Sequence record: PX418213.1
DNA: 64,000 nucleotides
Source of the DNA: a phage
Direction: 5' to 3' (one strand)
In this document: in pieces, positions 3 to 61,136 of the stretch
How the letters are laid out: each line of letters starts with the position of its first letter
Position numbering within the stretch: position 1 is the first letter of the stretch
The notes under the pieces: model-generated
Database searches by the model: none
What the model was told of the DNA's origin: nothing
The model's input: only the letters and a program-made list of their open reading frames with translations
Translations under genes and position numbers: made by a program

Positions 3-176
3 GAAGTAAAATGTAATCTTGAATTTGTGTATAATAGAGTGTTAAAAGTATACCAACGTAGCCCCAATGGGTACGAAGATATTACTTGGAGCATTAAACA
101 GTATCTTAAAGATATATACTCTAGTTTTTCTGACGAAGACCTAGAAACAGTTGCAGTGGAGTTTAATAATGACTAA
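3..176 (+). CDS. hypothetical protein, 3' fragment (gene starts upstream of the window)
   Basis: Frame is open from the window edge to TAA at 174-176; its stop overlaps the next start (ATGACTAA). Confidence 0.3.
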   Translation, partial: EVKCNLEFVYNRVLKVYQRSPNGYEDITWSIKQYLKDIYSSFSDEDLETVAVEFNND

Positions 177-375
177 GAATGTGAAACACCTTAAATATCG
201 CTTAATTTACAATGGACGTATGGAAACAGAAGACCTAGCCCAATTAGCTATTAATTCTAATGAGGTTACAGTGCGTGCGCTGGCAATTGAAAAGTTGCGT
301 GCCTCTTATGAAAATCGTGTTATGGAACTAGAGGAGAAACTTTATGGCATTCTCGAAGCCGATGCTACCAGATAA
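169..375 (+). CDS. hypothetical small protein (about 68 aa)
   Basis: ORF track 151..375; ATG at 169 preceded by GGAG about 8 nt upstream, so the start is refined from TTG 151. Confidence 0.4.
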   Translation: MTKNVKHLKYRLIYNGRMETEDLAQLAINSNEVTVRALAIEKLRASYENRVMELEEKLYGILEADATR

Positions 376-565
376 TGGTTTAAATGCCGCTTTGGAAAAT
401 GCATTAATGCAGCAGTGGGAAACTGGCTATAAGGATGGTGTTGAATCCTGTGCTACTATGCTAGAAGTTATTGCTAATACCTTAATGGAGAAAGGCAATA
501 AAGAATTAGCTGAGCTATTAGACAGTATTGGGCAAAACTTCAGAGAACAGGTGAAAAATGCGTAG
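344..565 (+). CDS. hypothetical protein (73 aa)
   Basis: ORF track; short overlaps with both neighbours, typical of phage gene packing. Confidence 0.35.
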   Translation: MAFSKPMLPDNGLNAALENALMQQWETGYKDGVESCATMLEVIANTLMEKGNKELAELLDSIGQNFREQVKNA

Positions 566-1376
566 ATTAATTATTATTAGCGGTGCAGGTTTGAGTGTTG
601 AAAGTGGTGTACGAGCTTTTCGTACTGATACTACTAGTGGTAAAGCACTGTGGGATGACTATGATCTAGAAGAAGTATGTAATATTCATGCCTTTCGTGG
701 TAATTTTTATCATAAAACCCATATGTTTTACAACAAGCGTCGTGAAGAGCTAAAAACTGTTGAACCCAATCTTGCGCATTTGCGTATTGGTGAATGGTAT
801 AAACAATATCCAGGTCAAGTAGTAAACTTGACTACCAACGTTGATGACCTTATTGAGCGTGCTGGAGTTCCACATAGTGACATTCTGCACATTCACGGAT
901 ATTTAAAAGAGGTTGTTGTAGCTGATAGCTACAATAGTAGCAATAAACGGATTATTGATGTAGGATACAATTCTGTTGATCCAGATGATTATAAATGGGT
1001 TAAACCTAATGTAATCTTCTTTGGAGAGCATGCTCCTGCATACGCAGAAATGTATAATGTTTTTGATGGTATTACCAGTCAAGATATGATCATTGTGGTT
1101 GGTTGCTCTAACCAAGTAATTAACTTCTACTGGGAATTATTTCCTGTTCTTAATTTGACTGCTGCGAAACTTATGGTTGTTAACTATTATGATAGTGCCC
1201 TAGCGGCGGAACCGGGCTATCAAGGTATGACTCGTAGTGAGATGTACCAGCTGGAAGAACGTGGTATCCCTTACTGGAGTAAAGGTGCAGTAGATGCTTT
1301 CAGTGATCCTGATTTTATTGCTCGTGTAGAAGCTCATTTAGAGGGTAGACCTTATGTGTCGAGAAGCAAGAAATAA
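558..1376 (+). CDS. SIR2-family (sirtuin-like) NAD-binding protein
   Basis: N-terminal IISGAGLSVESGVRAFR resembles the sirtuin GAGIS.ESGIP.FR Rossmann motif; NVIFFGEH (FGE motif), HIHG (catalytic His-Gly) and VVGCSN are present; no Zn-ribbon cysteine pairs, as in many prokaryotic SIR2 domains. Confidence 0.6.
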   Translation: MRRLIIISGAGLSVESGVRAFRTDTTSGKALWDDYDLEEVCNIHAFRGNFYHKTHMFYNKRREELKTVEPNLAHLRIGEWYKQYPGQVVNLTTNVDDLIERAGVPHSDILHIHGYLKEVVVADSYNSSNKRIIDVGYNSVDPDDYKWVKPNVIFFGEHAPAYAEMYNVFDGITSQDMIIVVGCSNQVINFYWELFPVLNLTAAKLMVVNYYDSALAAEPGYQGMTRSEMYQLEERGIPYWSKGAVDAFSDPDFIARVEAHLEGRPYVSRSKK

Positions 1377-1551
1377 TGAATGGGATATTTTTATAACTGA
1401 GTCTGGCACTTGGTGTTATAGGTTTGCCTACAGGTTTGCCTACAGGTTTCCTAGTGTAAGAAAACGGTTGGGATACGCATATAAAATTATCTATACTATG
1501 GATAATATATGGTTATCCTCTGGAGATGAGGAGAAACAGGTATGTCCATAG
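1354..1551 (+). CDS. doubtful small ORF overlapping a 12-bp tandem repeat
   Basis: ORF track only; the YRFAYRFAYRF stretch is encoded by the direct repeat aggtttgcctac at 1421-1452; start lies inside the SIR2-like gene. Confidence 0.2.
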   Translation: MCREARNNEWDIFITESGTWCYRFAYRFAYRFPSVRKRLGYAYKIIYTMDNIWLSSGDEEKQVCP

Positions 1552-1724
1552 TTAAATCTGTGTATACACATCCAGATGATATATTTGTATGGGCGGATGG
1601 TAGTTGGTGCTATCGCTGTGAGCTGTGGGAAATGGATTATAAATCCGATGACTATGGTGTTATATATGTTGATACGGTTGAGTATGATACGTTCTTAGAA
1701 AGGAACAGAAATGGAAATAAGTAA
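1542..1724 (+). CDS. hypothetical small protein (60 aa)
   Basis: ATG preceded by GAGGAG; compact spacing with neighbours. Confidence 0.35.
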   Translation: MSIVKSVYTHPDDIFVWADGSWCYRCELWEMDYKSDDYGVIYVDTVEYDTFLERNRNGNK

Positions 1725-2217
1725 TACTCCAATTATTTTTCTAGACATTGATGGGGTGCTCAATTCGAGCATCTCCCACCATCATGCACCTGACGATGAG
1801 AAGATTTTCTTTGGAAGTGATTGGGTTTTCAAACCGCTTCTCAAGGCTTTTCAGGACTTTATTCGTCCTTCTCCAATAATGATTGTTGGAGTATCATCTT
1901 GGTTCTCTGTCAGAAATGAGATGGAGAACGTTCGGATTATGACCGGATTAGGTCTTATCGATCGTTTTCTTGGTACAACGGATTTTACTGGTGGTGGATT
2001 ATCTAGGGGTAATTCTGTTCTTCGTTTCGTCGAAAAGCATAAGCTCAAACATTGGTGTGTACTTGATGATGCGGGTGCTATGATGTATCAGTATCCAACG
2101 GTTATAGTCAACGGTAGAACTGGGATAAATCTTCAAGATTTAAAAGCTGTTAGCTATATGCTAGAATTTAGCCCAGATCTTGAAATGTGTAAATCCTTAC
2201 AACAATTTAAGGTGTAA
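1711..2217 (+). CDS. HAD-superfamily phosphatase or hydrolase
   Basis: N-terminal IIFLDIDGVLNSS matches HAD motif I (DxDG[TV]). Confidence 0.55.
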   Translation: MEISNTPIIFLDIDGVLNSSISHHHAPDDEKIFFGSDWVFKPLLKAFQDFIRPSPIMIVGVSSWFSVRNEMENVRIMTGLGLIDRFLGTTDFTGGGLSRGNSVLRFVEKHKLKHWCVLDDAGAMMYQYPTVIVNGRTGINLQDLKAVSYMLEFSPDLEMCKSLQQFKV

Positions 2218-2219
2218 AT

Positions 2220-2648
2220 ATGTTCAATAATGTATTCTCTAAAGAAGCTAACCCAATTTTGGTTAACTTTTGGCGTACTCTCCCGGCTAGCCTGTATAAT
2301 GAGGCTATTAACTCCTTGAAAATATGGTGTGAGAATAATGAAATCTCCTTTGCTTTTAAAGATGATATTGATGAGGGCCCCTGTATTGGTTTAACTGTGC
2401 AGGTAGAGGATGGTCTTGAAGAGATTGTCGGCTGGAAAGAGTTGGATGAAATGGGCTTAGTTTTTGCGTTAAACTATAAGCTGTTTATGCCTAACAAACA
2501 CCGTATTGCTATTAATTATAAAACCGGTGAATCTCCTGGTTTTCAGGTTAATGAACGTTATGGTTGGTCTTACTCACCAGAAGAAGTAAATGAGGGGATT
2601 CAGAAACTTCGACGTTTCGGGTATATAATCCCAGGTTTAACTGCTTAA
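2220..2648 (+). CDS. hypothetical protein, tandem paralog 1
   Basis: Shares with the next ORF the pattern D(D)PCIG...ELD(E/A)MGL(V/I)(F/V)ALN...GW/PGL. Confidence 0.45.
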   Translation: MFNNVFSKEANPILVNFWRTLPASLYNEAINSLKIWCENNEISFAFKDDIDEGPCIGLTVQVEDGLEEIVGWKELDEMGLVFALNYKLFMPNKHRIAINYKTGESPGFQVNERYGWSYSPEEVNEGIQKLRRFGYIIPGLTA

Positions 2649-2657
2649 GGAGGCAGA

Positions 2658-3050
2658 ATGGAACAAGTATATTGGCGTCAGATTGACCCTAGTTTGGTGA
2701 AACGTGCGGAGAAGCTGCTACAACGTTGGTTGGGGGTAAGACAAGCCTCCTTCACTTTTCCGGAACAGCAAATAGATGACCCCTGCATTGGTGTTTTCCT
2801 GTCTGGATATGCCGGGGAATGGGAATTGGATTGGAATGAATTGTCTGCTATGGGCTTGATTGTTGCCCTAAACTTCTCTATATTCCATCCACGTGGTTTG
2901 GCCATATGTCGTGTGCCTGATGACGGTTGTTCGCCCCATCTTTTACAGGTGGAAGATGATATTTGGGAGTACACTCCAGATATTCTCAAAGAGGCTAAAG
3001 AACAATTAAACCGTGTTGGGATATATGTTCCGGGATTAAATGATGAATAA
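2658..3050 (+). CDS. hypothetical protein, tandem paralog 2
   Basis: Paralogous to 2220..2648; preceded by AAGGAGG. Confidence 0.45.
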   Translation: MEQVYWRQIDPSLVKRAEKLLQRWLGVRQASFTFPEQQIDDPCIGVFLSGYAGEWELDWNELSAMGLIVALNFSIFHPRGLAICRVPDDGCSPHLLQVEDDIWEYTPDILKEAKEQLNRVGIYVPGLNDE

Positions 3051-3237
3051 GGAATTTTGGAAAATAAAAGGTAAGATTTCTAAGTGGAATACTACAGGGA
3101 AAATTAGTAAGTCTCTAGAGATAGAGATAGCTAGAATGTTTACTGATCCTGATTTTGATATAGGAAAGCTAAGTAAAGTAGATGCTAAAAAAGTAGATAA
3201 GTATATGGAAGAGATTAGAAGTATTTTAAGTGTCTAA
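3040..3237 (+). CDS. hypothetical small protein (65 aa)
   Basis: ORF track; followed by an intrinsic terminator. Confidence 0.35.
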   Translation: MMNKEFWKIKGKISKWNTTGKISKSLEIEIARMFTDPDFDIGKLSKVDAKKVDKYMEEIRSILSV

Positions 3238-3244
3238 TCCACAT

Positions 3245-3270
3245 AACCGAGTCATTTTGGCTCGGTTTTA
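3245..3270 (+). terminator. rho-independent terminator
   Basis: Stem aaccgag / ctcggtt with 9-nt loop, followed by a T-run. Confidence 0.55.
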
Positions 3271-3313: not shown

Positions 3314-3342
3314 TTGCAGGATGCCCAAAATCTTGATATAAT
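3314..3342 (+). promoter_or_regulatory. sigma70-type promoter
   Basis: TTGCAG, 17 nt, TATAAT, in an AT-rich context. Confidence 0.4.
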
Positions 3343-9932: not shown

Positions 9933-10904
9933 ATGACTAATATAAAAGACTTTATTAAACGTTGTCAAGAAGCGTATTACCAGGGAATGTCTTTAATCTC
10001 TGACGAAGAATATGATCGTCTGATTAAAAGATTTCCGTTAGAAGAAGAGATTGGCCCTAAGGGCGATATTCCACATCTGTATCGTATGTATTCTTTACAG
10101 AAAGTTTATTATAATCGTGGAGATAAACCCCCATTTAACCCATTAGGTCAGGTAGAAACTGACAAGTTAGATGGTTGTGCGATTTCTCTATTATATATTA
10201 ATGGCGAATTTGTTCAAGCGCTAACTCGTGGTAATGGCATTTTAGGGAATGATGTCACAAGCAACGTAAGATTGCTGAATATCCCTGAAAAGATTTCCCA
10301 AAAAGTACCTACTCAAATCACTGGTGAAGTTCTAATTACAAAAGAAGTAGAAAATAAACGTAACTTTGCCTCTGGTGCTATTAACCTCAAAGATAGCGAT
10401 GATTTCGTACAACGTATCGGGGAAGGTGGTTTAATCTTCGTTGCATACGGTATCCAGTGTTCTGCTGAATCTGTAGGTATTACAGAATCGTATTTAAAAG
10501 ATATGCTCTGGCTAGAGAATGAAGATTTCTTAACAGTTGTTAATGTGCGTTCCTTCTTTAAATGGATTCCGACGGACGGTAAAGTTGTTCGTATTAATGA
10601 CAACAACAAATTCTTCCGAGAAGGCTGGACTAATAAATTCCCTCGTGGGGCATTCGCTATTAAAGAGGATGAAGAAGGCGAGATTACAACTCTTACTAAA
10701 GTTGAATGGCAGGTAGGGGCTTCTGGTAAAGTAACTCCAGTTGGTTATTTCGAACCGGTAATTATTGATGATGCTACAATTGTTAAAGCGACTCTTAATA
10801 ACGTTGATTATATTAACTCTCTTGATCTAGAGATCGGTTGCCAGATTCGAGTGATTCGTGCTGGTGGTGTAATCCCGTGCATAGTAGAGCGAGTATACGA
10901 TTAA
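9933..10904 (+). CDS. NAD-dependent DNA ligase, N-terminal adenylation-domain ORF
   Basis: Adenylation lysine motif DKLDGCAISL (KxDG); ends with a stop well before the Zn-finger/HhH/BRCT part. Confidence 0.7.
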   Translation: MTNIKDFIKRCQEAYYQGMSLISDEEYDRLIKRFPLEEEIGPKGDIPHLYRMYSLQKVYYNRGDKPPFNPLGQVETDKLDGCAISLLYINGEFVQALTRGNGILGNDVTSNVRLLNIPEKISQKVPTQITGEVLITKEVENKRNFASGAINLKDSDDFVQRIGEGGLIFVAYGIQCSAESVGITESYLKDMLWLENEDFLTVVNVRSFFKWIPTDGKVVRINDNNKFFREGWTNKFPRGAFAIKEDEEGEITTLTKVEWQVGASGKVTPVGYFEPVIIDDATIVKATLNNVDYINSLDLEIGCQIRVIRAGGVIPCIVERVYD

Positions 10905-11076: not shown

Positions 11077-11106
11077 ATTTATATAAATTGATAAGGAAGA
11101 AATTTG

Positions 11107-11886
11107 ATGAAAATCGAAATTCCAACACAATGTCCCTCTTGTGGTTCTAAGCTAGATCTTGTCAACGGACAATTATTCTGTCGGAATAAGTCCAACTGTC
11201 CAGCGCAATCAAGTAAGTTAATTGAGAACTTCTGTTCAAAAATGAAGTTAAAGGGCTTTGGCCCAAAAACTATTGAGAAGCTGGAGCTGACGAAGATTTC
11301 AGAACTATTTTACCTAACCGAAGAAGATTTGGTTAGAGCCGTGGGTAGCAAGGTTGCCGCTAAGTTAATTAGCGAATTAAATACTAAAGTTCGCGGAGAC
11401 ATTGACTTTGGTTCAGTTCTCGGTTCTTTAGGAATCCCTCTAATTGGAGAGGTTGCAGCAAAGAAATTATCCCAAAATTGCACTAGCTTCCACGATGTGA
11501 AGGCTGACGGCAAGGCTGGAGAAAACTATAAAGCCTGGCTAAATTCCCCACAAGGCAAGGATGTTATCGAACTACCGTGGAAATTCTCAACTGGTATTAA
11601 GGGCACTAAAGCTAATATTATCATTACGGATGAATTAGTTGCCCGGCCAAATGGAATCACGGTATGTATTACCGGATCTTTGCAAGATTTTGCAAATAGA
11701 ACGGATGCAACAAACTATTTAGAAAGTCTAGGATATACGGTTAAGAAATCCGTTACCAAAGACGTTAAATACCTAATCTGTGAGGATGAATCAAAACGTT
11801 CTTCCTCATCTTATAAGAAAGCCGAAACGAATGGGATAGAAATCCTGTCGATTAAAGAACTATTGGAGAAAAATAATAATGTCTAA
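11107..11886 (+). CDS. NAD-dependent DNA ligase, C-terminal ORF (Zn finger, HhH, BRCT-like)
   Basis: CPSCGSKLD...CRNKSNC zinc-finger pattern; BRCT-like ITGSLQDF segment; ATG 11107 preceded by AAGGAAGA. Confidence 0.6.
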   Translation: MKIEIPTQCPSCGSKLDLVNGQLFCRNKSNCPAQSSKLIENFCSKMKLKGFGPKTIEKLELTKISELFYLTEEDLVRAVGSKVAAKLISELNTKVRGDIDFGSVLGSLGIPLIGEVAAKKLSQNCTSFHDVKADGKAGENYKAWLNSPQGKDVIELPWKFSTGIKGTKANIIITDELVARPNGITVCITGSLQDFANRTDATNYLESLGYTVKKSVTKDVKYLICEDESKRSSSSYKKAETNGIEILSIKELLEKNNNV

Positions 11887-20864: not shown

Positions 20865-21842
20865 ATGAGAATATTATTTAGTGCTGATCATCATATCAAA
20901 CTAGGACAAGATAAAGTTCCAAAGGAATGGCAGAAGCGTCGCTTCCTGATGCTAGGAGAACGGTTAAATGATATATTCCATAATCATAACTGTGATCTTC
21001 ATATTGCTGGTGGTGATATACTTGATGTTGCCGACCCGTCGTCAGAAGAAATAGAACTGCTTGAACAGTTCATGTCAAGACTCGACCATCCAGGTAAAAT
21101 CTTTACTGGAAATCATGAAATGTTAACTAAAACCATTTCATGTCTATATCATTATGCAGGAGTTATTAATAAAGTAACGAGTGGGAAGTGGGAAGTAGTT
21201 ACCAAACCATATCGTTCCCCTGAATTTGATATTGTTCCGTATGATGAAATCCATAAGTCTAAGTGGAAACCATCTGAATCAAAACTATGTTTCACGCATG
21301 TTCGTGGTGAAATCCCTCCACATGTAAAACCAGAAATTGATCTAACTAAGTATAACTGTTATGATACTGTAATTGCTGGCGATTTACATTCTTATACTAA
21401 TAGCCAGACTATCGGGTCTACTAGACTCCTCTACCCAGGATCCCCATTAACTACATCGTTTCATAGAGAACGCACAAAAGGTACAAATGGTTGTTTTATC
21501 ATTGATACCGACACATTAAAAGTAGAATGGATTGAACTCGGTGATTTACCACAACTGATTCGTAAAACAATCGGAGCTGGTGAAGAGATGGAACCTAGTG
21601 ATTATGATCGTGTAGTCTATGAAGTTACTGGTGACGTTGTTCAATTAAAGTCTATTAAAGACTCTGATTTATTAGATAAGAAGATTAACCATCGAGTTAC
21701 TAAAGATGCTAAGTTAAATCTTGTTGATCTTGATATGTTAGGTGAACTTGAACTTTACTTCCGTGAAGTCGAGAAGCTATCTCAAGGCGACATTGATAGA
21801 ATCTTGGCTAGAGCTGCGAAATATGTCAAAGATTACAATTAA
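20865..21842 (+). CDS. SbcD/Mre11-like metallophosphoesterase nuclease
   Basis: Calcineurin-like motifs ADHH, GGDILD, GNHE. Confidence 0.65.
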   Translation: MRILFSADHHIKLGQDKVPKEWQKRRFLMLGERLNDIFHNHNCDLHIAGGDILDVADPSSEEIELLEQFMSRLDHPGKIFTGNHEMLTKTISCLYHYAGVINKVTSGKWEVVTKPYRSPEFDIVPYDEIHKSKWKPSESKLCFTHVRGEIPPHVKPEIDLTKYNCYDTVIAGDLHSYTNSQTIGSTRLLYPGSPLTTSFHRERTKGTNGCFIIDTDTLKVEWIELGDLPQLIRKTIGAGEEMEPSDYDRVVYEVTGDVVQLKSIKDSDLLDKKINHRVTKDAKLNLVDLDMLGELELYFREVEKLSQGDIDRILARAAKYVKDYN

Positions 21843-24147: not shown

Positions 24148-25022
24148 TGAGTAAATCCTGGGGAAAATTTATTGAAGAAGAGGAAGCTGAAATGGCTTCC
24201 CGTCGTAACCTAATGATTGTCGATGGAACTAACTTAGGCTTTCGCTTCAAGCATAACAATAGTAAAAAACCATTTGCCTCAAGTTATGTTTCCACTATTC
24301 AATCTCTTGCAAAATCTTATTCTGCTAGAACTACAATAGTTTTAGGAGATAAAGGGAAGTCTGCATTCCGCTTAGAGCATCTCCCAGAGTATAAAGGGAA
24401 TCGAGATGAGAAATACTCGCAGCGTACGGAAGAGGAGAAAGCGTTAGATGAGCAGTTCTTCGAGTATTTGAAAGATGCTTTCGAATTATGTGAAACTACA
24501 TTCCCAACTTTCACTATTCGTGGTGTAGAAGCAGATGATATGGCAGCTTATATTGTTAAGCTGATAGGGCATCTATATGCTCATGTTTGGCTAATTTCTA
24601 CCGATGGTGACTGGGATACTTTATTAACTGATAAAGTTTCTCGCTTCTCTTTCACAACACGTCGTGAATATCATCTTCGTGATATGTATGAACATCATAA
24701 TGTTGACGATGTAGAGCAGTTTATCTCCCTGAAAGCAATTATGGGTGATTTAGGGGATAATATCCGAGGTGTTGAGGGTATTGGGGCAAAGCGTGGGTAT
24801 AATATTATTCGTGAATTTGGTAACGTTCTGGATATTATTGATCAGCTTCCACTGCCTGGAAAACAGAAATATATACAGAATTTAAATGCTTCGGAAGAAT
24901 TGCTTTATCGAAACCTAATTCTGGTTGATTTACCTACCTACTGTGTGGATGCTATTGCTGCTGTAGGTCAAGATGTATTAGATAAATTTACAAAAGATAT
25001 TTTGGAGATTGCAGAACAATGA
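24147..25022 (+). CDS. flap endonuclease / 5'-3' exonuclease
   Basis: N-terminal MIVDGTNLGFRF and FEN-family acidic clusters; 291 aa. Confidence 0.75.
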   Translation: MSKSWGKFIEEEEAEMASRRNLMIVDGTNLGFRFKHNNSKKPFASSYVSTIQSLAKSYSARTTIVLGDKGKSAFRLEHLPEYKGNRDEKYSQRTEEEKALDEQFFEYLKDAFELCETTFPTFTIRGVEADDMAAYIVKLIGHLYAHVWLISTDGDWDTLLTDKVSRFSFTTRREYHLRDMYEHHNVDDVEQFISLKAIMGDLGDNIRGVEGIGAKRGYNIIREFGNVLDIIDQLPLPGKQKYIQNLNASEELLYRNLILVDLPTYCVDAIAAVGQDVLDKFTKDILEIAEQ

Positions 25023-25465
25023 TTAAAATTAAATTAACTCATCCAGATTGTATGCCTAAGATTGGCTCTGAAGATGCCGCAGGTATGGATCTGCGAGCGT
25101 TCTTTGGTACTAACCCTGCTGCAGATTTACGTGCTATTGCACCAGGCAAATCTCTTATGATTGACACCGGTGTCGCGGTAGAAATTCCGCGAGGTTGGTT
25201 CGGTTTGGTAGTTCCTCGTAGCTCCTTAGGTAAGCGTCATCTGATGATTGCAAACACCGCAGGAGTGATTGACTCAGACTATCGTGGAACTATTAAGATG
25301 AACCTTTATAACTATGGTTCTGAAATTCAAACTCTGGAAAATTTTGAAAGACTTTGTCAGCTAGTAGTAGTACCACACTACTCAACTCATAATTTTGAAA
25401 TCGTTGACGAACTAGGGGAGACTAATCGTGGAGAAGGCGGATTTGGAAGTTCAGGAAGCAAATAA
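25019..25465 (+). CDS. dut: dUTP diphosphatase (dUTPase)
   Basis: dUTPase motifs AAGMDLRA, RSSLGKR, GVIDSDYRG. Confidence 0.8.
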   Translation: MIKIKLTHPDCMPKIGSEDAAGMDLRAFFGTNPAADLRAIAPGKSLMIDTGVAVEIPRGWFGLVVPRSSLGKRHLMIANTAGVIDSDYRGTIKMNLYNYGSEIQTLENFERLCQLVVVPHYSTHNFEIVDELGETNRGEGGFGSSGSK

Positions 25466-25691
25466 TTTTACTGATCCTAATATGGTAGGTGTTGATACTA
25501 ATACATCAACTTATCAGATTAAAACTACTGAACCAGAAACGTTTGTGCTAAAAACAGATAAAGAGGGTAATGTTACCTTCTGGGATCCTGAAGGTTTTGT
25601 AGAGCTTTGTACTAATACAGATAATGAGCAGTTAAAATTACTACTAACTATTTATAATCTTGGTATTATAGAAGGTTGTAGAAGCGAATAA
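25428..25691 (+). CDS. hypothetical protein (87 aa)
   Basis: ORF track; overlaps the dUTPase 3' end in another frame. Confidence 0.3.
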   Translation: MEKADLEVQEANNFTDPNMVGVDTNTSTYQIKTTEPETFVLKTDKEGNVTFWDPEGFVELCTNTDNEQLKLLLTIYNLGIIEGCRSE

Positions 25692-25697
25692 TAGAAA

Positions 25698-25734
25698 AAC
25701 CCCAGTGGATTTTGTCCACTGGGGTTTCTTTTTT
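25698..25734. terminator. bidirectional intrinsic terminator between convergent early and late transcription units
   Basis: Perfect 12-bp stem aaccccagtgga / tccactggggtt, A-run upstream and T-run downstream. Confidence 0.7.
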
Positions 25735-28700
25735 ACTGTGCCCTATTTGCTAACAAAGAGTTAACTACTAGAGTTAGGTCTGCAATTTGCTTTTTAAGAT
25801 CAGATACTTCTGATTCTAGAGCTGTGATCCTGCTATCAGATTCTCTGCCTGCTTGTACTAGTAGACCTGTTACAGCAGCATAGTCAACAGAATAGAAACG
25901 TTCCTCGCCAACTAGTTGCTCACCAGTAAGTGTAGGCCCTTCAAGATCTGTATATTTTGTAAATCCACTTACAGCCTCCGGTAGCGCTTCCATCACTTCC
26001 TGAGCTATAACACCAGCGTAAGGCAGCCCATTTTCCTTAAGGGTATAAGTATAACCTTTCATTTTGCGCAATGATTCAGTGGCGTTTTGGATTTCCTCAA
26101 TATTATCCTTCAGATCTCTATCGGATGACTGAGTAATGTTTGTTGCTTCAACTTTTCCATTAACATTAAAAACACGGGATCCATCAGAACTTTGCTGAGC
26201 ATAAAACAAATAACCATCTGGTAGCTTACATTCAACAACAGATGGCCTTCCAGTAGTATTACCCCATAGTAGGATAGTAGCACTTTTTGCTGACGTCTGG
26301 TTATTTTCGTATTTGAATTCACGACCATTACTTCTTCTAACAGAAATACCACTACCATCAGCAAATATTCCGCCGCTATAGTTAGGAGTTCTTAATGTGA
26401 TATTATCACTTACAGTTAGAGTACTGCCGTTCATATCGTTATGTAGGATAACATCCTTAGCAGCCCCACCTTTTCCCACGTACCACAGTCTAGCAGAATC
26501 TGTTCTACATGCTAAATAACCAACTTGAGACGTATCGGTTCCGGTAAGTCTTATTGATAAGGCCTCACCAGCTTTAGCTATCGAAACAGGAACACCAAAA
26601 TCAGCAAATTTATCTGTGATTAATCTGTTCCATGTTCCAATAGTACCACCCTCAATACTTCTAGCCCAGAATTTAGATCCACGACCTACAAACTGGGTAG
26701 CATAATTACCGCTAAACCCTACATGGATACCACCATATACAACATTATTTTCCGGAGTATTAACTTGACCCGCAACACCATAAAATTTATTGATAGTATT
26801 ATGTTGGGTATTCCAGTCTATACCAGTAGAAGATAAAATACCAGAAGGAGCTGAAAAGGTTCCATCCTTATTGAAGTTAAAGAATTTATGGCTAGCAGAA
26901 CTACTCATATCTCTAACAATAATTTGTCCTGCTTCTTCGGTTGCCCTAAACTCACTCTGCCCTACTATGTTATCGTCACTATTTACCAGTTGAGATGTAT
27001 ACGTATTTTTTGTTACAGCATCACCTCTAGCAGAATAACTATTAGCACCGACAACACTACCATTAAAAGTAAAAGAAGGTGCAGTAGCAGAAAAAGCATC
27101 TCCAGTACTAAGGTTATTAGTTAGGGCAAAATTATTAGATAATCCCTGGCGGAAAGGATGGGTAGAGTAGTAACCAGAACCACCACCAGTAAAGTTCAGA
27201 ATATTCTTCACATTACCTTCTGTGTTCCCATCACCCGCATCTGTTACCCCAAACTTAAATTTAACACCGTTAGTACCTAATACATAATCCTCAGTTGGAA
27301 CAATTATCTCAACCTTAGGGTCTGTCATAATATTTACAGGGAATGCCTTATAGTGTACATACACTGCTATATGCTGGGCGTAGTCTTTGTTACTACCCTT
27401 TATACATAAGATCCCTAGTTCATTAGGGTCGTATGTTGTAAACATGCCGTGTGCCATAGTGGGACTATCACTCCAACCCCCACAAGTTACATATCCAGAG
27501 AAAACATTATTGTTCATCTCATGGGACGCAGATCTACCAGGAGTACGCACAAATATAGGTACAGGCGTAATACCATAACCATTGGTACCCCCAGTGTAGA
27601 TTATAACTGGGTAATATTTTCCATCTACAGCACCTGCGGGTGCATTGATAGTCTGGTAATCACCCATAAATCCAGTAGTAGGTATACCTAAATTTCGTTG
27701 GGTTACAGTAAGATCCCTAACAGCTATAGTCTCCGTATTTATCTCATTTGGTACGTATAATTGGCCATTGTGTTTAAAATGGAATGTTTTATAAGATGGA
27801 CCAGTATCTTCCCCCATAACCTGTAGAGTTGCAGCCGCAACCCCATCAGCAAGTTTCTCTGGGTATAGGCGCATACGTACCCTTTGAGTACCATCTGTAG
27901 CTCTTAGATAGCTATTAATAATACCGCCGGCAGCTACAGTACTATCACTATATCCAGTTAAAGCCAAACCAGCAAATAAAGGAGCATGTTGAGAACCTAG
28001 TTCTATAAGCTGTCTACAATAACTAGGATCGTAGCTATTAAGAATAGACCCCCAAGGAGACCACGTTGAAGTACCTGGGTTATAGCTACGTTCATATATT
28101 CTATTAGAACTAAAGGTAATGTATATCTGACAACATCCTGGGGTTCCATTAGCACTATTTTGTAGTACCATTAAGTTTCCAGCTTCTTGAATAGGGTAAT
28201 TACGGGCTGTAGTTGCATTAGCTGATAGGCTCTGGTAGTAGAAACCTGCGTAATCACCATTAAGGTCATTCAAGTTCTGCCCTGTTAAGGTAGAAAATCT
28301 ACGATACATTACTTCTAGATTTCTACGCGCATCAGAAGTATTATTACCGCCAGTACCGCCATGGGATACGTCTAGTGGAATCCACCTTTTTTCTGTGTCA
28401 CTATATGCTCCCCAAGAGTTGTCAGTAAGTCCTAGACGCATAGTCTTAGAAGCATTGTAGACCCAGGTTTCGCTTCCCCACTGATCTAACCTATCAATCT
28501 TCAAGTTTACTTTAGAAGTAGCTACATCTGACAAGCTTATGGCATTACCTATAAAATTTCCATTAATCTGAAAGTTTCCATCAATACTTAATCCTGCGTA
28601 CTTATTAGTATTAGTATCTGATTGTAGGTGTATAGTAACCCATTCTTTGTTATCGCCACGTACTTCGGAGTACAACCTATAGCGTGCCCTCTGTGCACCG

Positions 28701-32341: not shown

Positions 32342-35191
32342 TTAAATAGTAGCCCAACCAACAGATTGCTCACCATTTTCCCCCTCTGCTCTAATCCTAA
32401 ATCGTAGTTTACGATTAATTCCTAAAGCACCTGAGTTTAATAGTGCAAAATCCGCCTTATTATATGTTAATAGATAGTCATAGGTATAGGCATCCTCTAT
32501 CCTAATACTACGAAGCATTCTATCCTGAGAATCATGTATTTCTAGAGTGTAATAGATTTCTGGGATTATTTCTTCCTCAGGTATCTTATCCCAAGCAAGT
32601 TTCACGTCTGGACCAACAAATTCAGTCACATCTCCAGAAGCTGTATTAGTTACTCTGAAGTTACTAACTACACTCAAGTTTCTAGCAGAGTTAAGATCCA
32701 CGGAAAGAGTAACAGGAGAACTACGTCTACCGTTAATATCAACAGCACGTAACTCAAAAATAGCTAAACCAGCAGGCTCACCTATAATCTCCTGAATCAT
32801 CCTTTCATTAGGATTATTCTCTAATTGCTGAATTATGTAAGGATCTACATGTCCTGAATGAGCTATAGAATAATATACTACGTTATTAGTAAGACTAGGT
32901 AGCCAAGATAGTTCCCCATTTTTACCTATAGCACCTATCATACCACCAGGAGTTGGTGTATATTTAAAGTCTCTAGGAGGAAGAACATTATTACTAATAT
33001 CTGGAATATCATTGCCACTATTATCCACTTGATCAGAATTGATGAATACATCTTCACCATATTCTTGTAGTGTTAAGTTAATCTTACCATCACGAGTATT
33101 TTCTACCTCATCTACTAAGAAGAACTTGTCTTTCCATCCATAACGCTCATAAGTAAAAGCAATCGGATCATTTGGCTCTATACCAATGAACTTATAGGGT
33201 ACTGAGAAGCTAAGTGTACGTGAGTACCTGGACTTTTTAAGCTCTCTATCAGCGTAACTACGAGCGGTGTAGTAGTTAGTAATATTTGCAAAAGATAGCT
33301 GAAGTTTTTTATCCAAACCCTTATCTTGTTCTTTAAACTTAGAGTTATAGAATGTAATAGAGTTTGTTTTCCAGCTTAGTGCAGGATCCACTAAAGATGC
33401 TTGTACTGAGTTAAACTTATTCCTACCAGTAGTATCAGATAAGTCTAAGTCCCCATAAGTATCTAGAAAACCTATTTTCAAAGGAGTTGTAGAGTGCTTC
33501 TCTACAGTTATTCTATACTCACCAGATAAGTTATTTATAGCACCACCAAAAGAGTCCAGTACTCCCTGAACGTTTTTAAATACTGATTCGGAGGTGTCTA
33601 ATATAGTATTTAACTGGACTACTTGGCGGTGTTCAGAAATAGAATCACTCCAACCAATATATCTCCAATAGGGTTGCCAGCTAACCTGATAAGATTCATC
33701 AATTATATCTAGAATTTTTGCTTCTGATATAATTTTTTGTAGTGGAAACTGGTCTAGAGTTATATTAGCTCCATAACGTTCAGAGGTTAGATAGTCCATG
33801 AGCTGCCAGATACCGTTAAGGCTAGTTTTATCAGCTTTAACAGACCCATCAGAGCTATATACTTTGACTTTCTTACCTTGTACTTCAGCACTAATTTCTG
33901 GAATTTCAGTTCTATTCTCATTAATAGTAAATCTAACTACAGCGTAGGCTGTGTCTAATAGCTTATAACGAGAATCCCAGTATTCTGGGCCATTGCCATT
34001 TTGATTCTGTAAATAGAAACCTTTTCTTTTAGCAATATCCACTAATACTTGAGCTGCTGTCTGGTCTGGTTTGCCATGAAAGGTCCATATTCTTATGTCA
34101 CCATTACCATCATTATACTTATACTCCTGACCATGAACAGAAGGTTGAGAAGTACTTGTACCAGCAGCTAGTCTATGCATTGTATCACCTACTAGTTTTT
34201 TACGACCGAAGCAGGTTCTAGTATTGGAATCTGTTTCATCGAAACAGATCATTGGGCTGTCACCAATATAGAAATCTAGGAATCCATCAATTTCTCCTTC
34301 CGAGAAAGCGTAGACTACGTACACTATATTAGGATTATTTAGCTCAGTATCTGCAAAAATAGGTATACCAGGAATTTTCTGGACACCGTATACTACAGGT
34401 ATAAATTTAGCTGCTAAGTTAAAGTCTAGGTCAACTTCTTTAGTTACAGTCTCATAGTATTTTTTAAGGCTATAGCTTCTAGACAAACCAAATAACTTTT
34501 TCTTAGACTGAAGTTTATAACGTTCTTCTTTTACTTGATATTTAGCTAATATAGTGGTACTTTTATTAGAGTGGAAGAATCCATAGTCTTCTTGATACTC
34601 GGGACGTTTAGCACCATTTGATGGCTGAAGAGTTCCATTAACAACTTCAAGTCCTCGGTGAGAAGCATCATCGGTATAGCGACCGTTTACCCTATCAAAA
34701 TCATAGAACTGGTTAGAACAGTTCCATGTTATAACAGAAGTTCCTATACCGGAAGTACTAACATTATCCTTTATTCCGCCGCCAGTAATTTTACCACGAA
34801 AGAATAGTAAAGGTCCATTAGTATCAGGATCTACAGGAAGAATATTACCTTCTTCATCAATTATAGCTTGATGTATAGTGATAGTTCTATCTAAGAAAGA
34901 TACTCCATTTTGAACTAGTTTTAATACTTCATCTTCTGCTGTACCAGTTATGGTAAAAGATAGACTACCAATAGATAGTTCACGGTTTTGTTTGTGGGAG
35001 CCGATACTTTTTACTTTACCGGATCTATATAATATTCCGTTATAAGTAACATCTCTAAAGTAGTCAGTTAAATAAATATAAGTAGCAGCAGAGCCTGATG
35101 AACTAGGAAGCTCTAAAGCTATAAGACAAGCTGTTTTTAGCTTGTCATGAGTATTAAGATATGTTTTAGCACTATCGAGTATCTGCTTCAT
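32342..35191 (-). CDS. baseplate hub protein (pb3-like)
   Basis: 949 aa large tail protein immediately downstream of the distal tail protein. Confidence 0.55.
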   Translation of the reverse strand: MKQILDSAKTYLNTHDKLKTACLIALELPSSSGSAATYIYLTDYFRDVTYNGILYRSGKVKSIGSHKQNRELSIGSLSFTITGTAEDEVLKLVQNGVSFLDRTITIHQAIIDEEGNILPVDPDTNGPLLFFRGKITGGGIKDNVSTSGIGTSVITWNCSNQFYDFDRVNGRYTDDASHRGLEVVNGTLQPSNGAKRPEYQEDYGFFHSNKSTTILAKYQVKEERYKLQSKKKLFGLSRSYSLKKYYETVTKEVDLDFNLAAKFIPVVYGVQKIPGIPIFADTELNNPNIVYVVYAFSEGEIDGFLDFYIGDSPMICFDETDSNTRTCFGRKKLVGDTMHRLAAGTSTSQPSVHGQEYKYNDGNGDIRIWTFHGKPDQTAAQVLVDIAKRKGFYLQNQNGNGPEYWDSRYKLLDTAYAVVRFTINENRTEIPEISAEVQGKKVKVYSSDGSVKADKTSLNGIWQLMDYLTSERYGANITLDQFPLQKIISEAKILDIIDESYQVSWQPYWRYIGWSDSISEHRQVVQLNTILDTSESVFKNVQGVLDSFGGAINNLSGEYRITVEKHSTTPLKIGFLDTYGDLDLSDTTGRNKFNSVQASLVDPALSWKTNSITFYNSKFKEQDKGLDKKLQLSFANITNYYTARSYADRELKKSRYSRTLSFSVPYKFIGIEPNDPIAFTYERYGWKDKFFLVDEVENTRDGKINLTLQEYGEDVFINSDQVDNSGNDIPDISNNVLPPRDFKYTPTPGGMIGAIGKNGELSWLPSLTNNVVYYSIAHSGHVDPYIIQQLENNPNERMIQEIIGEPAGLAIFELRAVDINGRRSSPVTLSVDLNSARNLSVVSNFRVTNTASGDVTEFVGPDVKLAWDKIPEEEIIPEIYYTLEIHDSQDRMLRSIRIEDAYTYDYLLTYNKADFALLNSGALGINRKLRFRIRAEGENGEQSVGWATI

Positions 35192-35802
35192 AGACTTTCC
35201 CTCAAGGAAAGTGAAATACCAGAGTAAGTACCATTGTTATTTAATGTAGAACCAAAAGAATCAGCATTCATTAGCTTAGTTCTAAATAAGATACCATTAA
35301 AAACTGGTTTTTCACTACCCGTAGTAGTAATAAATAGGTCAGGGTATAAGGATAAGTTCCATACATTTCCTGAGCTAGTAAAATTTGTTATTTTATAGAC
35401 TTTTGGGTGATTTGATAATTTAAATAGATCTCCAGCTTTTGGTAGTCCTGTCAAGGTTCCATTAGTATTTAGTATAATCTGAGAACCTTTCTGTCCTGCT
35501 GGTATAGTAACATTTTTAGTATCACCACGTACTCTAAATGCTTCATACTGAGGTAGAAGTACTTCTAGATAATCTCCAGTTCTTTTATATTCTAAAATTT
35601 TAGAATCTAGGAACGCATATTCATCTGGGAAAAGTTCCGGGTATGAGATATTAATTCCCCAGTATTGAGCAGATATTTTAACCTCTTTGACTTTACCATT
35701 AGGTAATTCATCACGAATCATAGGGTCATTATCTACTACGTTGACGCTTTCAAAACCTAACCCTGGGTATTCTGGGTTCGTGTATGGATCTGGTAGTCTC
35801 AT
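35188..35802 (-). CDS. distal tail protein (pb9-like)
   Basis: 204 aa; directly downstream of the tape measure gene; stop overlaps the hub start. Confidence 0.5.
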   Translation of the reverse strand: MRLPDPYTNPEYPGLGFESVNVVDNDPMIRDELPNGKVKEVKISAQYWGINISYPELFPDEYAFLDSKILEYKRTGDYLEVLLPQYEAFRVRGDTKNVTIPAGQKGSQIILNTNGTLTGLPKAGDLFKLSNHPKVYKITNFTSSGNVWNLSLYPDLFITTTGSEKPVFNGILFRTKLMNADSFGSTLNNNGTYSGISLSLRESL

Positions 35803-60149: not shown

Positions 60150-61136
60150 ATGAGGCTATATAAACCAGATAACGCAACCGTCTTAAAAGGTGCGCTGCGT
60201 AACCTGCTGGACGGTAGCAGAACAACCAGCATTAAGCATTTTGTTTTCAATATTGAAACTATTCATCAAAACTTTTTTGATGATTATGATGCTTATAATA
60301 TGAATAGTTTTCTACCGTTATATAAGCAAGGGGCAACGCTTGTTTTATATAATCAGGATTATCAATTACTTACTAGTCGGGGGCCGGATACTGATTTCAT
60401 AATAGTAAAAGGCAACACAGTAAAAGCCTATGATACTGGGGCGGGCCTAGAAGTTTTTTCAATAGAAAACTATGAGGCCAATGATAATGATCTTTATGAC
60501 GTAGAAAATTTTCTCGATTCATTTTGGCGTTATTTATCAGTTGGCTGGAATCGGTCGGATTCTGATGGGTATCGTTTTGCGGCTATAATGGCCTTTGATG
60601 ATAACGGTAATTTTTTGCTACCGTCGGAGTTATATAATCGGGTATATGAAGGCGATATTGTTGACGCCGGATTTTCTTTCGAAAGGGAAGAAAGTATTGG
60701 CAATATAGAAAAACATGTTGTAAATTCTAACACTAAAAACGTTCACACTCAAACTACTGAAAACAAAGGAAAAAATACCATGACCAAGATTGCTAACATC
60801 GTTGCCGCTAATAAATCCGCCGTTGTAAACGCTGCAAAACTGGAAGCGGGTAAAATTGCACTAACTCAAATCACGAAAGTAGCGGCTAAAAAAGCACCGT
60901 TCATGATCAGAGGCTATATTGATACGCCGATTGGTCGCGTAGTGATCGCTAACCTGCTGAGTGTAGCGGTTGACCAGTACGCCCCGAGTAACCAGAAAGC
61001 GAAAGCGGTAGCAAGCGCGGCAATGGAAGCGGCTATGTTAGAAATGGTGCAATCTTTTAACATCGCTGAGATGATCGATGAAATGGTAAAAGGTATCGAT
61101 ATTTCTACTTTTACCAATAACACCGAAAACGAGTAA
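60150..61136 (+). CDS. hypothetical protein (328 aa; possibly two fused domains or genes)
   Basis: ORF track; internal ATG at about 60780 preceded by AAGGAAAA starts an Ala/Val-rich C-terminal part. Confidence 0.4.
   Translation: MRLYKPDNATVLKGALRNLLDGSRTTSIKHFVFNIETIHQNFFDDYDAYNMNSFLPLYKQGATLVLYNQDYQLLTSRGPDTDFIIVKGNTVKAYDTGAGLEVFSIENYEANDNDLYDVENFLDSFWRYLSVGWNRSDSDGYRFAAIMAFDDNGNFLLPSELYNRVYEGDIVDAGFSFEREESIGNIEKHVVNSNTKNVHTQTTENKGKNTMTKIANIVAANKSAVVNAAKLEAGKIALTQITKVAAKKAPFMIRGYIDTPIGRVVIANLLSVAVDQYAPSNQKAKAVASAAMEAAMLEMVQSFNIAEMIDEMVKGIDISTFTNNTENE

Follow-up and report, generated by a model that had tools for sequence, protein, structure and literature searches.

The early region of a T5-like phage (sequence record PX418213.1), of which we have analysed a stretch of 64,000 nucleotides that will be referred to as the window, encodes a sirtuin devoid of a zinc ribbon (positions 558–1376) and a capless phosphatase of the HAD superfamily (1711–2217), two recognizable enzymes that may together clean up phosphorylated RNA ends after host toxins or defence nucleases have cut tRNA or mRNA. 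We favour this reading tentatively, as a possibility that falls somewhat short of being probable. Its strongest argument is provided by the genomes of other phages, where the sirtuin and the HAD protein are each linked to one and the same heal-and-seal gene set for RNA, thus reflecting an independent association of both enzymes with RNA-end processing. This linkage across phage lineages, the structure of the operon, the identity of the domains and the integrity of the catalytic motifs are established, and it is from these properties that substrates and chemistry are inferred.

The assignment of the first enzyme to the SIR2 family, which had been proposed from motifs in a first-pass annotation of the same DNA, is borne out by a profile search, where the protein matches PF02146 with 88.8 bits compared to a cut-off of 24 and covers positions 1–178 of the 180 contained in the profile. 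Its motifs include GAGxS (G9–S13), F21-R22, TTNVD (92–96), H113-G114, FFGE (154–157) and GCS (182–184). The residues of the site for nicotinamide adenine dinucleotide (NAD+), G9-A10-G11-L12-S13, N94/D96 and G182-C183-S184, are together with H113-G114 invariant or nearly so in sets of 28 and 125 clade members, the latter of which also share the FFGE and the class III FYNxRR motifs. The catalytic histidine, whose absence had been named beforehand as a reason to abandon the assignment, is present as H113 and conserved in the clade. A Y-x-x-R motif for the binding of acyl-carboxylates is found in the sequence FYNKRR, whose Y58 is invariant in the alignment of 28 sequences and whose R61 is kept except in the protein of the jumbo phage G17, which retains R62. 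The same annotation had remarked on the missing zinc-ribbon cysteines, and the protein indeed contains no cysteine between HG and FGE and hence no Cys4 ribbon. Among the 112 clade members in which both of these motifs were found, the intervening stretch holds no cysteine in 62, one in 47 and two in 3 cases, which implies that the ribbon was lost throughout the clade. As far as is known, V-x-P after GTS is otherwise universal in sirtuins and TQNxD is the usual form of the second motif; in the subclade of the window protein, the former reads V-I-N and the glutamine of the latter is replaced by threonine (TTNVD).

The best match of the sirtuin in the PDB is CobB from E. coli (1s5p, E=2e-17), with Sir2Af and SIRT5 as the next best, and CobB-type NCBIfam models recognize the protein below their cut-offs (NF001753 with 100.8 vs 243, NF040867 with 90.2 vs 320 and NF001755 with 77.7 vs 318 bits). 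Judged from its sequence, the protein represents a CobB-like class III derivative whose NAD+ site is intact and which retains the catalytic H113. Its sole match in Pfam is SIR2 and no homology to the Tpt1 family was found. The kinship to NAD-depleting SIR2 effectors of anti-phage defence that had been considered initially could not be sustained, since the protein is most closely related to class III sirtuins of the CobB type and since the defence profiles of PADLOC gave no match for any of the seven cluster proteins; a defence-type identity was for the latter reason rejected. The clade was detected by tblastn in 1001 of 50,697 phage records, with carriers in Demerecviridae, Vequintavirinae, Mydovirus-like, phi92-like, KVP40-like and jumbo phages, and it was observed almost solely on phage or phage-sized contigs. 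The Zn-less state had already been noted in homologues of KVP40-like phages, with T5 among the listed carriers (Skliros et al., 2016; PMC5107563).

The second enzyme had likewise been recognized as a HAD phosphatase, and it matches PF18143 (HAD_SAK_2) with 73 bits at a cut-off of 27.5. The protein shows a Rossmannoid HAD fold with all four motifs (DxD, S/T, K/R and DD) intact, and 50 diverse homologues show no variation at D12/D14, S62 and R99 and hardly any at D119/D120. No cap is present, and among the closest structural neighbours are MDP-1, SCP1 and UBLCP1, phosphatases that act on macromolecules. By sequence, no relatives were identified in the PDB, either with the single protein or with a profile of 50 sequences. 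A HMMER library search with the HAD protein retrieved 152 representative clusters, nearly all of them stand-alone proteins of about 145–230 residues. Fusions are rare and have a metallophosphoesterase or a Pol-beta nucleotidyltransferase as partner. The idea that its relatives are multidomain proteins of the 'Swiss Army Knife' type was rejected, since nearly all of the 150 relatives listed are stand-alone and shorter than 300 residues.

The connection to RNA repair emerges from the neighbourhoods of both genes. In at least four other phage lineages, orthologues of the sirtuin with 48–63% identity are located among RNA-repair genes, at a distance of at most 10 kb from an Rnl1 RNA ligase, an AAA_33 kinase of the polynucleotide type, a calcineurin-like phosphoesterase and usually a cREC protein (PF20274), a family for the processing of cyclic phosphates. 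In the Vequintavirus LL12, the ligase and cREC precede the sirtuin, and the kinase and the phosphoesterase face it, whereas the same set appears reordered and supplemented by a MazG-like pyrophosphohydrolase in the Mydovirus-like phage Iguana. Downstream of the sirtuin, the jumbo phage G17 encodes a Nudt16-like Nudix protein and then cREC. We have built hidden Markov models (HMMs) for RNA-repair families and applied them to 80 sirtuin loci from IMG/VR. The ligase, the kinase and the phosphoesterase are found together in 13 of these loci, in at least four gene orders, with a partial set where the contig is cut (L038 and L067); four further loci belong to jumbo phages with the Nudix protein and cREC, and 28 are T5-like with SIR2, HAD and DUF7415, the family of the two genes downstream, with HAD absent from another three T5-like loci. 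The phosphatase shows a comparable association without the sirtuin, which is found in none of its 52 non-T5 loci. In L117 and L127/L128, ligase, kinase and phosphoesterase are encoded 2–3 kb away from the HAD gene, with no other informative neighbour in L117 and L127, and five further loci contain the phosphoesterase, one of them also the kinase. In the Aeromonas phage AsFcp_2, genes for the HAD protein, rnlA and a DUF7415 protein are confined to 2.6 kb, and a distant T5-like contig (L073) has kept SIR2, HAD and a phosphoesterase of the LL12 type within 7 kb.

Several labels in public records are erroneous. A second 'Sir2' is annotated in many of them, which we have rejected as such, since the respective protein is the HAD phosphatase in T5-like phages and a MazG-like protein in LL12. 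For the phosphatase, which is listed as 'Sir2 (NAD-dependent deacetylase)' in entries such as NC_048857.1 and PP724615.1, the mislabelling arises because the family phrog_18062 carries the name Sir2, although it matches the C-terminal half of the HAD protein with E=6e-58 and the true sirtuin with E=2e-6. The 'putative Sir2-like protein' of LL12, encoded directly 3' of the true sirtuin (L004 6776–7489), has no match in Pfam, and HMMs identify it as a homologue of the MazG-like 'nucleotide pyrophosphohydrolase' in Iguana; the gene recurs downstream of the sirtuin in every locus with ligase and kinase. DUF7415 proteins are elsewhere mislabelled as 'tail tube protein' or 'exonuclease'.

In the mechanism that we favour, cut RNA ends would be opened to 2'- or 3'-phosphates, and the capless HAD protein would remove a terminal 3'- or 2'-phosphate. 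The Zn-less sirtuin might use NAD+ in the manner of Tpt1/KptA, where the oxygen of a 2'-phosphate would attack C1'' of NAD+ upon departure of nicotinamide. This step would mirror normal sirtuin chemistry with phosphate in place of the acyl group, and the conserved class III pair Tyr58/Arg61 could bind the anion. As an alternative role, the HAD protein could take the phosphate off ADP-ribose-1''-phosphate, and its action on such a nucleotide product, which had been suggested early on, may be one option. Sealing would proceed via a host ligase such as RtcB, which would be needed because no RNA ligase of the phage was found. A counter-defence role as initially proposed may in this way hold through the repair of RNA ends cut by toxins, but not through a kinship to NAD-depleting defence proteins.

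A more specific version of this proposal, which we consider doubtful, holds that the Zn-less phage clade constitutes the first sirtuin acting on nucleic acids, an NAD+-dependent RNA 2'-phosphotransferase that evolved from a CobB-like deacylase as convergent analogue of Tpt1 and that in T5-like phages counters the cleavage of tRNA or mRNA by defence systems together with the HAD protein. In such an enzyme, a phosphate monoester would be swapped in for acyl-lysine and the DUF7415 proteins would perhaps act as partners. The activity would complement the tRNA genes that the phage itself carries. In a variant of this proposal, the sirtuin would act on NAD-capped RNA, a substrate hinted at by the Nudix protein (Nudt16-like) that is its neighbour in jumbo phages.

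These proposals have to be weighed against the view of an ordinary CobB-like sirtuin that acts as NAD+-dependent lysine deacylase, or else as protein ADP-ribosyltransferase, and that serves host takeover by remodelling proteins of the host or the phage at an early stage of infection, with HAD and DUF7415 neighbours that are unrelated to its function. We have rated each explanation separately, some of them being compatible with one another, and regard this one as somewhat unlikely. It agrees with the identity of the closest relatives, CobB, Sir2Af and SIRT5, with the matches to CobB-type models and with the conservation of GAGxS, N94/D96, H113, FFGE and Y58/R61. In SIRT5 and CobB, the tyrosine-arginine pair binds succinyl or malonyl groups. 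A deacetylase activity was argued for the Zn-less KVP40-like homologue, whose transcript was seen 20 min post-infection (Skliros et al., 2016; PMC5107563), and many sirtuin loci contain no RNA-repair neighbours. Conversely, the scores of the protein remain far below the cut-off of every CobB equivalog, the zinc ribbon, which builds the small domain for peptide binding, is devoid of its cysteines in the entire clade, and the replacements in V-x-P and TQNxD depart from the canonical pattern. Nor would a deacylase function explain why genes for the processing of RNA ends are repeatedly linked to the sirtuin in several lineages.

Other observations weigh against RNA-end clean-up. Since tblastn revealed no homologue of the ligase, kinase, cREC, phosphoesterase or MazG-like protein in the window, the pathway would be incomplete. 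A search for Rnl1 in the 50,697 phage records found no T5-like phage, either among the 40 of 815 matches listed or in the organism tallies, and a kinase of the type found in LL12 and Iguana is absent from the window and from any T5-like locus scanned. Similarly, no cREC or other RNA-repair domain was detected among the small neighbours in T5, My1 and Sugarlandvirus. About 31 of the 80 sirtuin loci, including those of phi92-like and KVP40-like phages, contain none of the modelled RNA-repair genes, and the two enzymes also occur apart, as illustrated by Sugarlandvirus, which combines SIR2 and DUF7415 without HAD, and by the 52 HAD loci without SIR2. The synteny within Demerecviridae is one inherited block and counts as a single observation. 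Moreover, the whole clade of sirtuins is acidic, its median isoelectric point (pI) of 5.2 being unusual for an RNA-binding enzyme, and as far as can be told from its residues, the protein retains everything required for ordinary lysine deacylation. Finally, we found no experimental work on T5.102–T5.107, DUF7415 or PF18143 in the literature.

A different kind of explanation, which we hold to be distinctly unlikely, places the operon in the metabolism of NAD+, ADP-ribose or nucleotides. The sirtuin would cleave NAD+ or nicotinamide mononucleotide or transfer groups from them, possibly by phosphoribosyl transfer as first ascribed to CobB, and the HAD protein would dephosphorylate a small nucleotide product, with an outcome in either nucleotide supply or the destruction of NAD-derived immune signals. 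Such a role is suggested by the location of the operon directly after nrdD and near phoH, nrdA, nrdB and thyA, by T4-like homologues of the HAD protein between td and nrdA.1 or near a dCTPase gene, and by a half-size DUF7415 protein between nrdD and nrdG in Jiaodavirus. Further genes lend support: the window encodes an NAD-dependent DNA ligase in two parts, HK6 has a YbiA/NADAR gene upstream, in Iguana the genes for nicotinamide phosphoribosyltransferase and phosphoribosyl pyrophosphate (PRPP) synthetase are located 4–5 kb from the sirtuin, and T5-like phages carry the NARP3 pair for the rebuilding of NAD+ (PMC13464706). However, the T5 annotation has nrdD followed by a terminator and T5.100 preceded by a promoter of its own, which places the operon outside the nrd transcript, and the proximity to nucleotide genes in T4-like phages is weak evidence because it follows the conserved T4 gene order. 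There was also no match to PADLOC or anti-defence families, and we know of no sirtuin that hydrolyses signals of the cyclic ADP-ribose type. The processing of NAD-derived immune signals had also been raised in the first-pass annotation, and nothing in our analysis points that way.

Some of these genes deserve mention in their own right. The DNA ligase is split into parts encoding the adenylation and OB domains (9933–10904) and the BRCT domain (11104–11886), which are separated by about 200 bp, and is, at a distance of 8.5 kb downstream from the sirtuin, a second enzyme that consumes NAD+. The YbiA/NADAR gene (L094 15084–15533, corresponding to HK6 35083–35532) is located about 10 kb upstream of the sirtuin beside genes for RNase H and thyA. 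Together with the sirtuin, it may be part of the same network of NAD and ADP-ribose. NADAR domains are described as processing ADP-ribose adducts (PMC9503650). In Iguana_ER37 (L005 1–1130), nicotinamide phosphoribosyltransferase and PRPP synthetase form an NAD+ salvage pair upstream of the block containing sirtuin and ligase.

The composition of the operon bears on yet another explanation, according to which its genes were acquired independently in a variable early region, share no joint function and remain together by common descent within Demerecviridae. We consider this unlikely. The two genes downstream of HAD are, as had been noticed early on, tandem paralogues (34% identity, E=9e-22), and both match the DUF7415 family PF24187 (118.7 and 111.5 bits, cut-off 27) with two stretches per protein. 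The second of them gives a confident alpha/beta model with uninformative structural neighbours. The family looks phage-derived, and its hits labelled as bacterial are few and either partial or located on phage-sized contigs. Its C-terminal half is also found by itself, as a protein of about 77 residues encoded between nrdD and nrdG in T4-like phages of the genus Jiaodavirus (vB_Kpn_AM_K3, L008 3980–4213). In AsFcp_2 (L013 5760–6026), the gene of such a half-protein is located directly 3' of rnlA and 1.8 kb from the HAD homologue, and in T5-like phages the DUF7415 genes reside about 3 kb downstream of nrdD. The two small open reading frames (ORFs) of the family phrog_5116 between SIR2 and HAD, at 1354–1551 and 1542–1724, are also mutual paralogues (BLASTP E=3e-5) with the common motif DIFxxxGxWCYR. 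The homologue of the first is present in T5 and absent in HK6 and NBSal005, and the window version contains one more 12-bp repeat unit than T5 (YRFAYRFAYRF vs YRFAYRF). In the alignment with T5, the ORF at 3040–3237 is inserted sequence, which HK6 and NBSal005 also contain. Like the DUF7415 pair, the phrog_5116 proteins are accessory and specific to phages.

Such variation would be expected from genes without joint function: the number of phrog_5116 ORFs ranges from 0 to 2 across T5-like loci, ORF 3040–3237 is missing in T5, HAD is missing in Sugarlandvirus, DUF7415 is found as single gene in My1 and L066, and each of SIR2, HAD and DUF7415 is found on its own in other phage families. In contrast, starts and stops overlap along the entire string, which ends at one terminator, SIR2 and HAD are each tied elsewhere to the same RNA-repair genes, and L073 has preserved SIR2, HAD and the phosphoesterase despite its large divergence.

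The phage origin of the DNA, as assumed initially, is evident from its assignment to Tequintavirus within the Demerecviridae. With the first 6 kb as query, 530 phage records were matched, of which 196 reach a query cover of at least 80%, and the best matches, with 95–97% identity, are all T5-like, among them HK6, LmqsSP1, NBSal005 and T5. On the T5 reference, the cluster corresponds to T5.102 (Sir2), the small ORFs T5.103 and T5.104, and T5.105 to T5.107, all of which are located between nrdD and the gene for the replication-origin binding protein. Its composition was only partly captured at first: the cluster is one co-oriented, overlapping unit ending at a terminator, and the two small ORFs between SIR2 and HAD had been missed. 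From 151–375 through 3040–3237, neighbouring starts and stops on the + strand overlap or almost touch (Table 1). Since the terminator hairpin at 3246–3269 and the next early promoter are conserved from T5, whose annotation also contains a terminator after nrdD and a promoter ahead of T5.100, the cluster is its own early operon, T5.100–T5.107, whose start is located just upstream of the window. A simple terminator scan had missed the hairpin at its end, in which the T run is short.

Table 1. Features of the early operon and its downstream boundary
Feature	Position	Strand	Remarks
Small ORF, 74 residues, T5.101 homologue	151..375	+	phrog_5236 (E=1e-45); no Pfam family; upstream part of the string
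Small ORF, 73 residues	344..565	+	phrog_5827 (E=6e-31); annotated in HK6; overlaps the SIR2 start by 8 nucleotides
Zn-less sirtuin, 272 residues, T5.102 orthologue	558..1376	+	PF02146 (E=5.4e-25); phrog_2162 (E=2e-121)
Small ORF, 65 residues, T5.103 homologue	1354..1551	+	First of two phrog_5116 paralogues
Small ORF, 60 residues, T5.104 homologue	1542..1724	+	Second phrog_5116 paralogue (E=2e-29)
Capless HAD-superfamily phosphatase, 168 residues, T5.105 orthologue	1711..2217	+	PF18143 HAD_SAK_2 (E=4e-20)
DUF7415 protein a, 142 residues, T5.106 orthologue	2220..2648	+	PF24187 (E=1e-34); phrog_2502
DUF7415 protein b, 130 residues, T5.107 orthologue	2658..3050	+	PF24187
Extra small ORF, 65 residues, basic (pI 9.5)	3040..3237	+	phrog_29527
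Rho-independent terminator hairpin ACCGAGTCATTTTGGCTCGGTTTT, closes the operon	3246..3269	+	Identical to the stretch annotated in T5
Next early promoter, extended -10	~3314-3342	+	Identical to the stretch annotated in T5

No tRNA genes, which were sought near the cluster, were found in the window, and a tRNA block is located about 15–25 kb upstream of it in HK6. The sign of the GC skew flips at about 25000–26000, where the genes change from the + strand (early and replication) to the - strand, on which large late or structural ORFs begin at 25733. An ORF of 328 residues at 60150–61136 matches DUF7566 over its full length (E=8e-111). A calcineurin-like ORF at 20865–21842 was considered as phosphoesterase of the LL12 type and rejected, since it adjoins a gene that is annotated as Rad50-like ATPase in HK6 and is hence a DNA-repair nuclease.

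If the prediction of RNA repair were true, the chemistry of sirtuins would extend from acyl groups of proteins to phosphates of RNA, and T5-like phages, frequent members of phage-therapy collections, would gain a countermeasure to tRNA-cleaving immunity. As it stands, our analysis re-identifies an operon whose genes T5.102–T5.107 have been annotated since 2005, and its value lies in a defined experimental target, namely two enzymes that are small and soluble, whose active sites are intact and for which clear candidate substrates exist. The analysis further uncovers the annotation error by which a HAD phosphatase carries the name 'Sir2' throughout public records.

The relationship to known systems places the phage sirtuin between several classes of proteins. 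With ThsA, DSR1/2, SIR2-HerA and SIR2-pAgo it shares a SIR2 fold without zinc ribbon and the use of NAD+, but unlike these defence effectors it has no match in PADLOC and contains no SLOG, HerA, pAgo or long C-terminal domain, constituting instead a single-domain protein of a virulent phage with HAD, DUF7415 and small ORFs as neighbours. Closer similarity is found to the class III sirtuins CobB (1s5p) and SIRT5, with respect to the Rossmann NAD+ site, the catalytic histidine, the FGE loop and the Y-x-x-R motif, from which it is distinguished by the absence of the Cys4 ribbon, by TTNVD in place of TQNxD, V-I-N in place of V-x-P, and by scores below the equivalog cut-offs. The HAD protein resembles T4 Pnkp/Rnl1 and the 'Swiss Army Knife' RNA repair proteins, after which PF18143 is named, in its DxD chemistry and in the proximity of its relatives to Rnl1 ligase and kinase, although in contrast to the heal-and-seal system of Pnkp/Rnl1, no homologue of the Rnl1 ligase or, as 5'-OH polynucleotide kinase, of the kinases of LL12 and Iguana was found in the window. 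By analogy, the proposed NAD+-dependent removal of RNA 2'-phosphates would proceed via an ADP-ribosylated intermediate as in Tpt1/KptA (mechanism in PMC11417386). The sirtuin is placed in operons with ligase, kinase and phosphoesterase genes in other phages, whereas its fold and sequence family are unrelated to Tpt1/KptA and its clade is acidic. The most immediate precedent is the T5-like phage SP15, where a neighbourhood of sirtuin and SAK-HAD was described by Iyer, Burroughs, Anantharaman and Aravind (2022, Viruses 14:1977; PMC9503650), who predicted a function in RNA repair with the sirtuin as a Tpt1/KptA analogue removing RNA 2'-phosphates. Both the cluster and the RNA-repair hypothesis are thus already contained in the literature and in public annotation. 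Neither the DUF7415 pair nor the small ORFs are mentioned in its passages on the SP15 neighbourhood. SP15 contains the same gene pair within the same phage group and also carries DUF7415 genes, so that nothing substantive separates it from the operon described here, to which the window adds an extra phrog_5116 copy and ORF 3040–3237.

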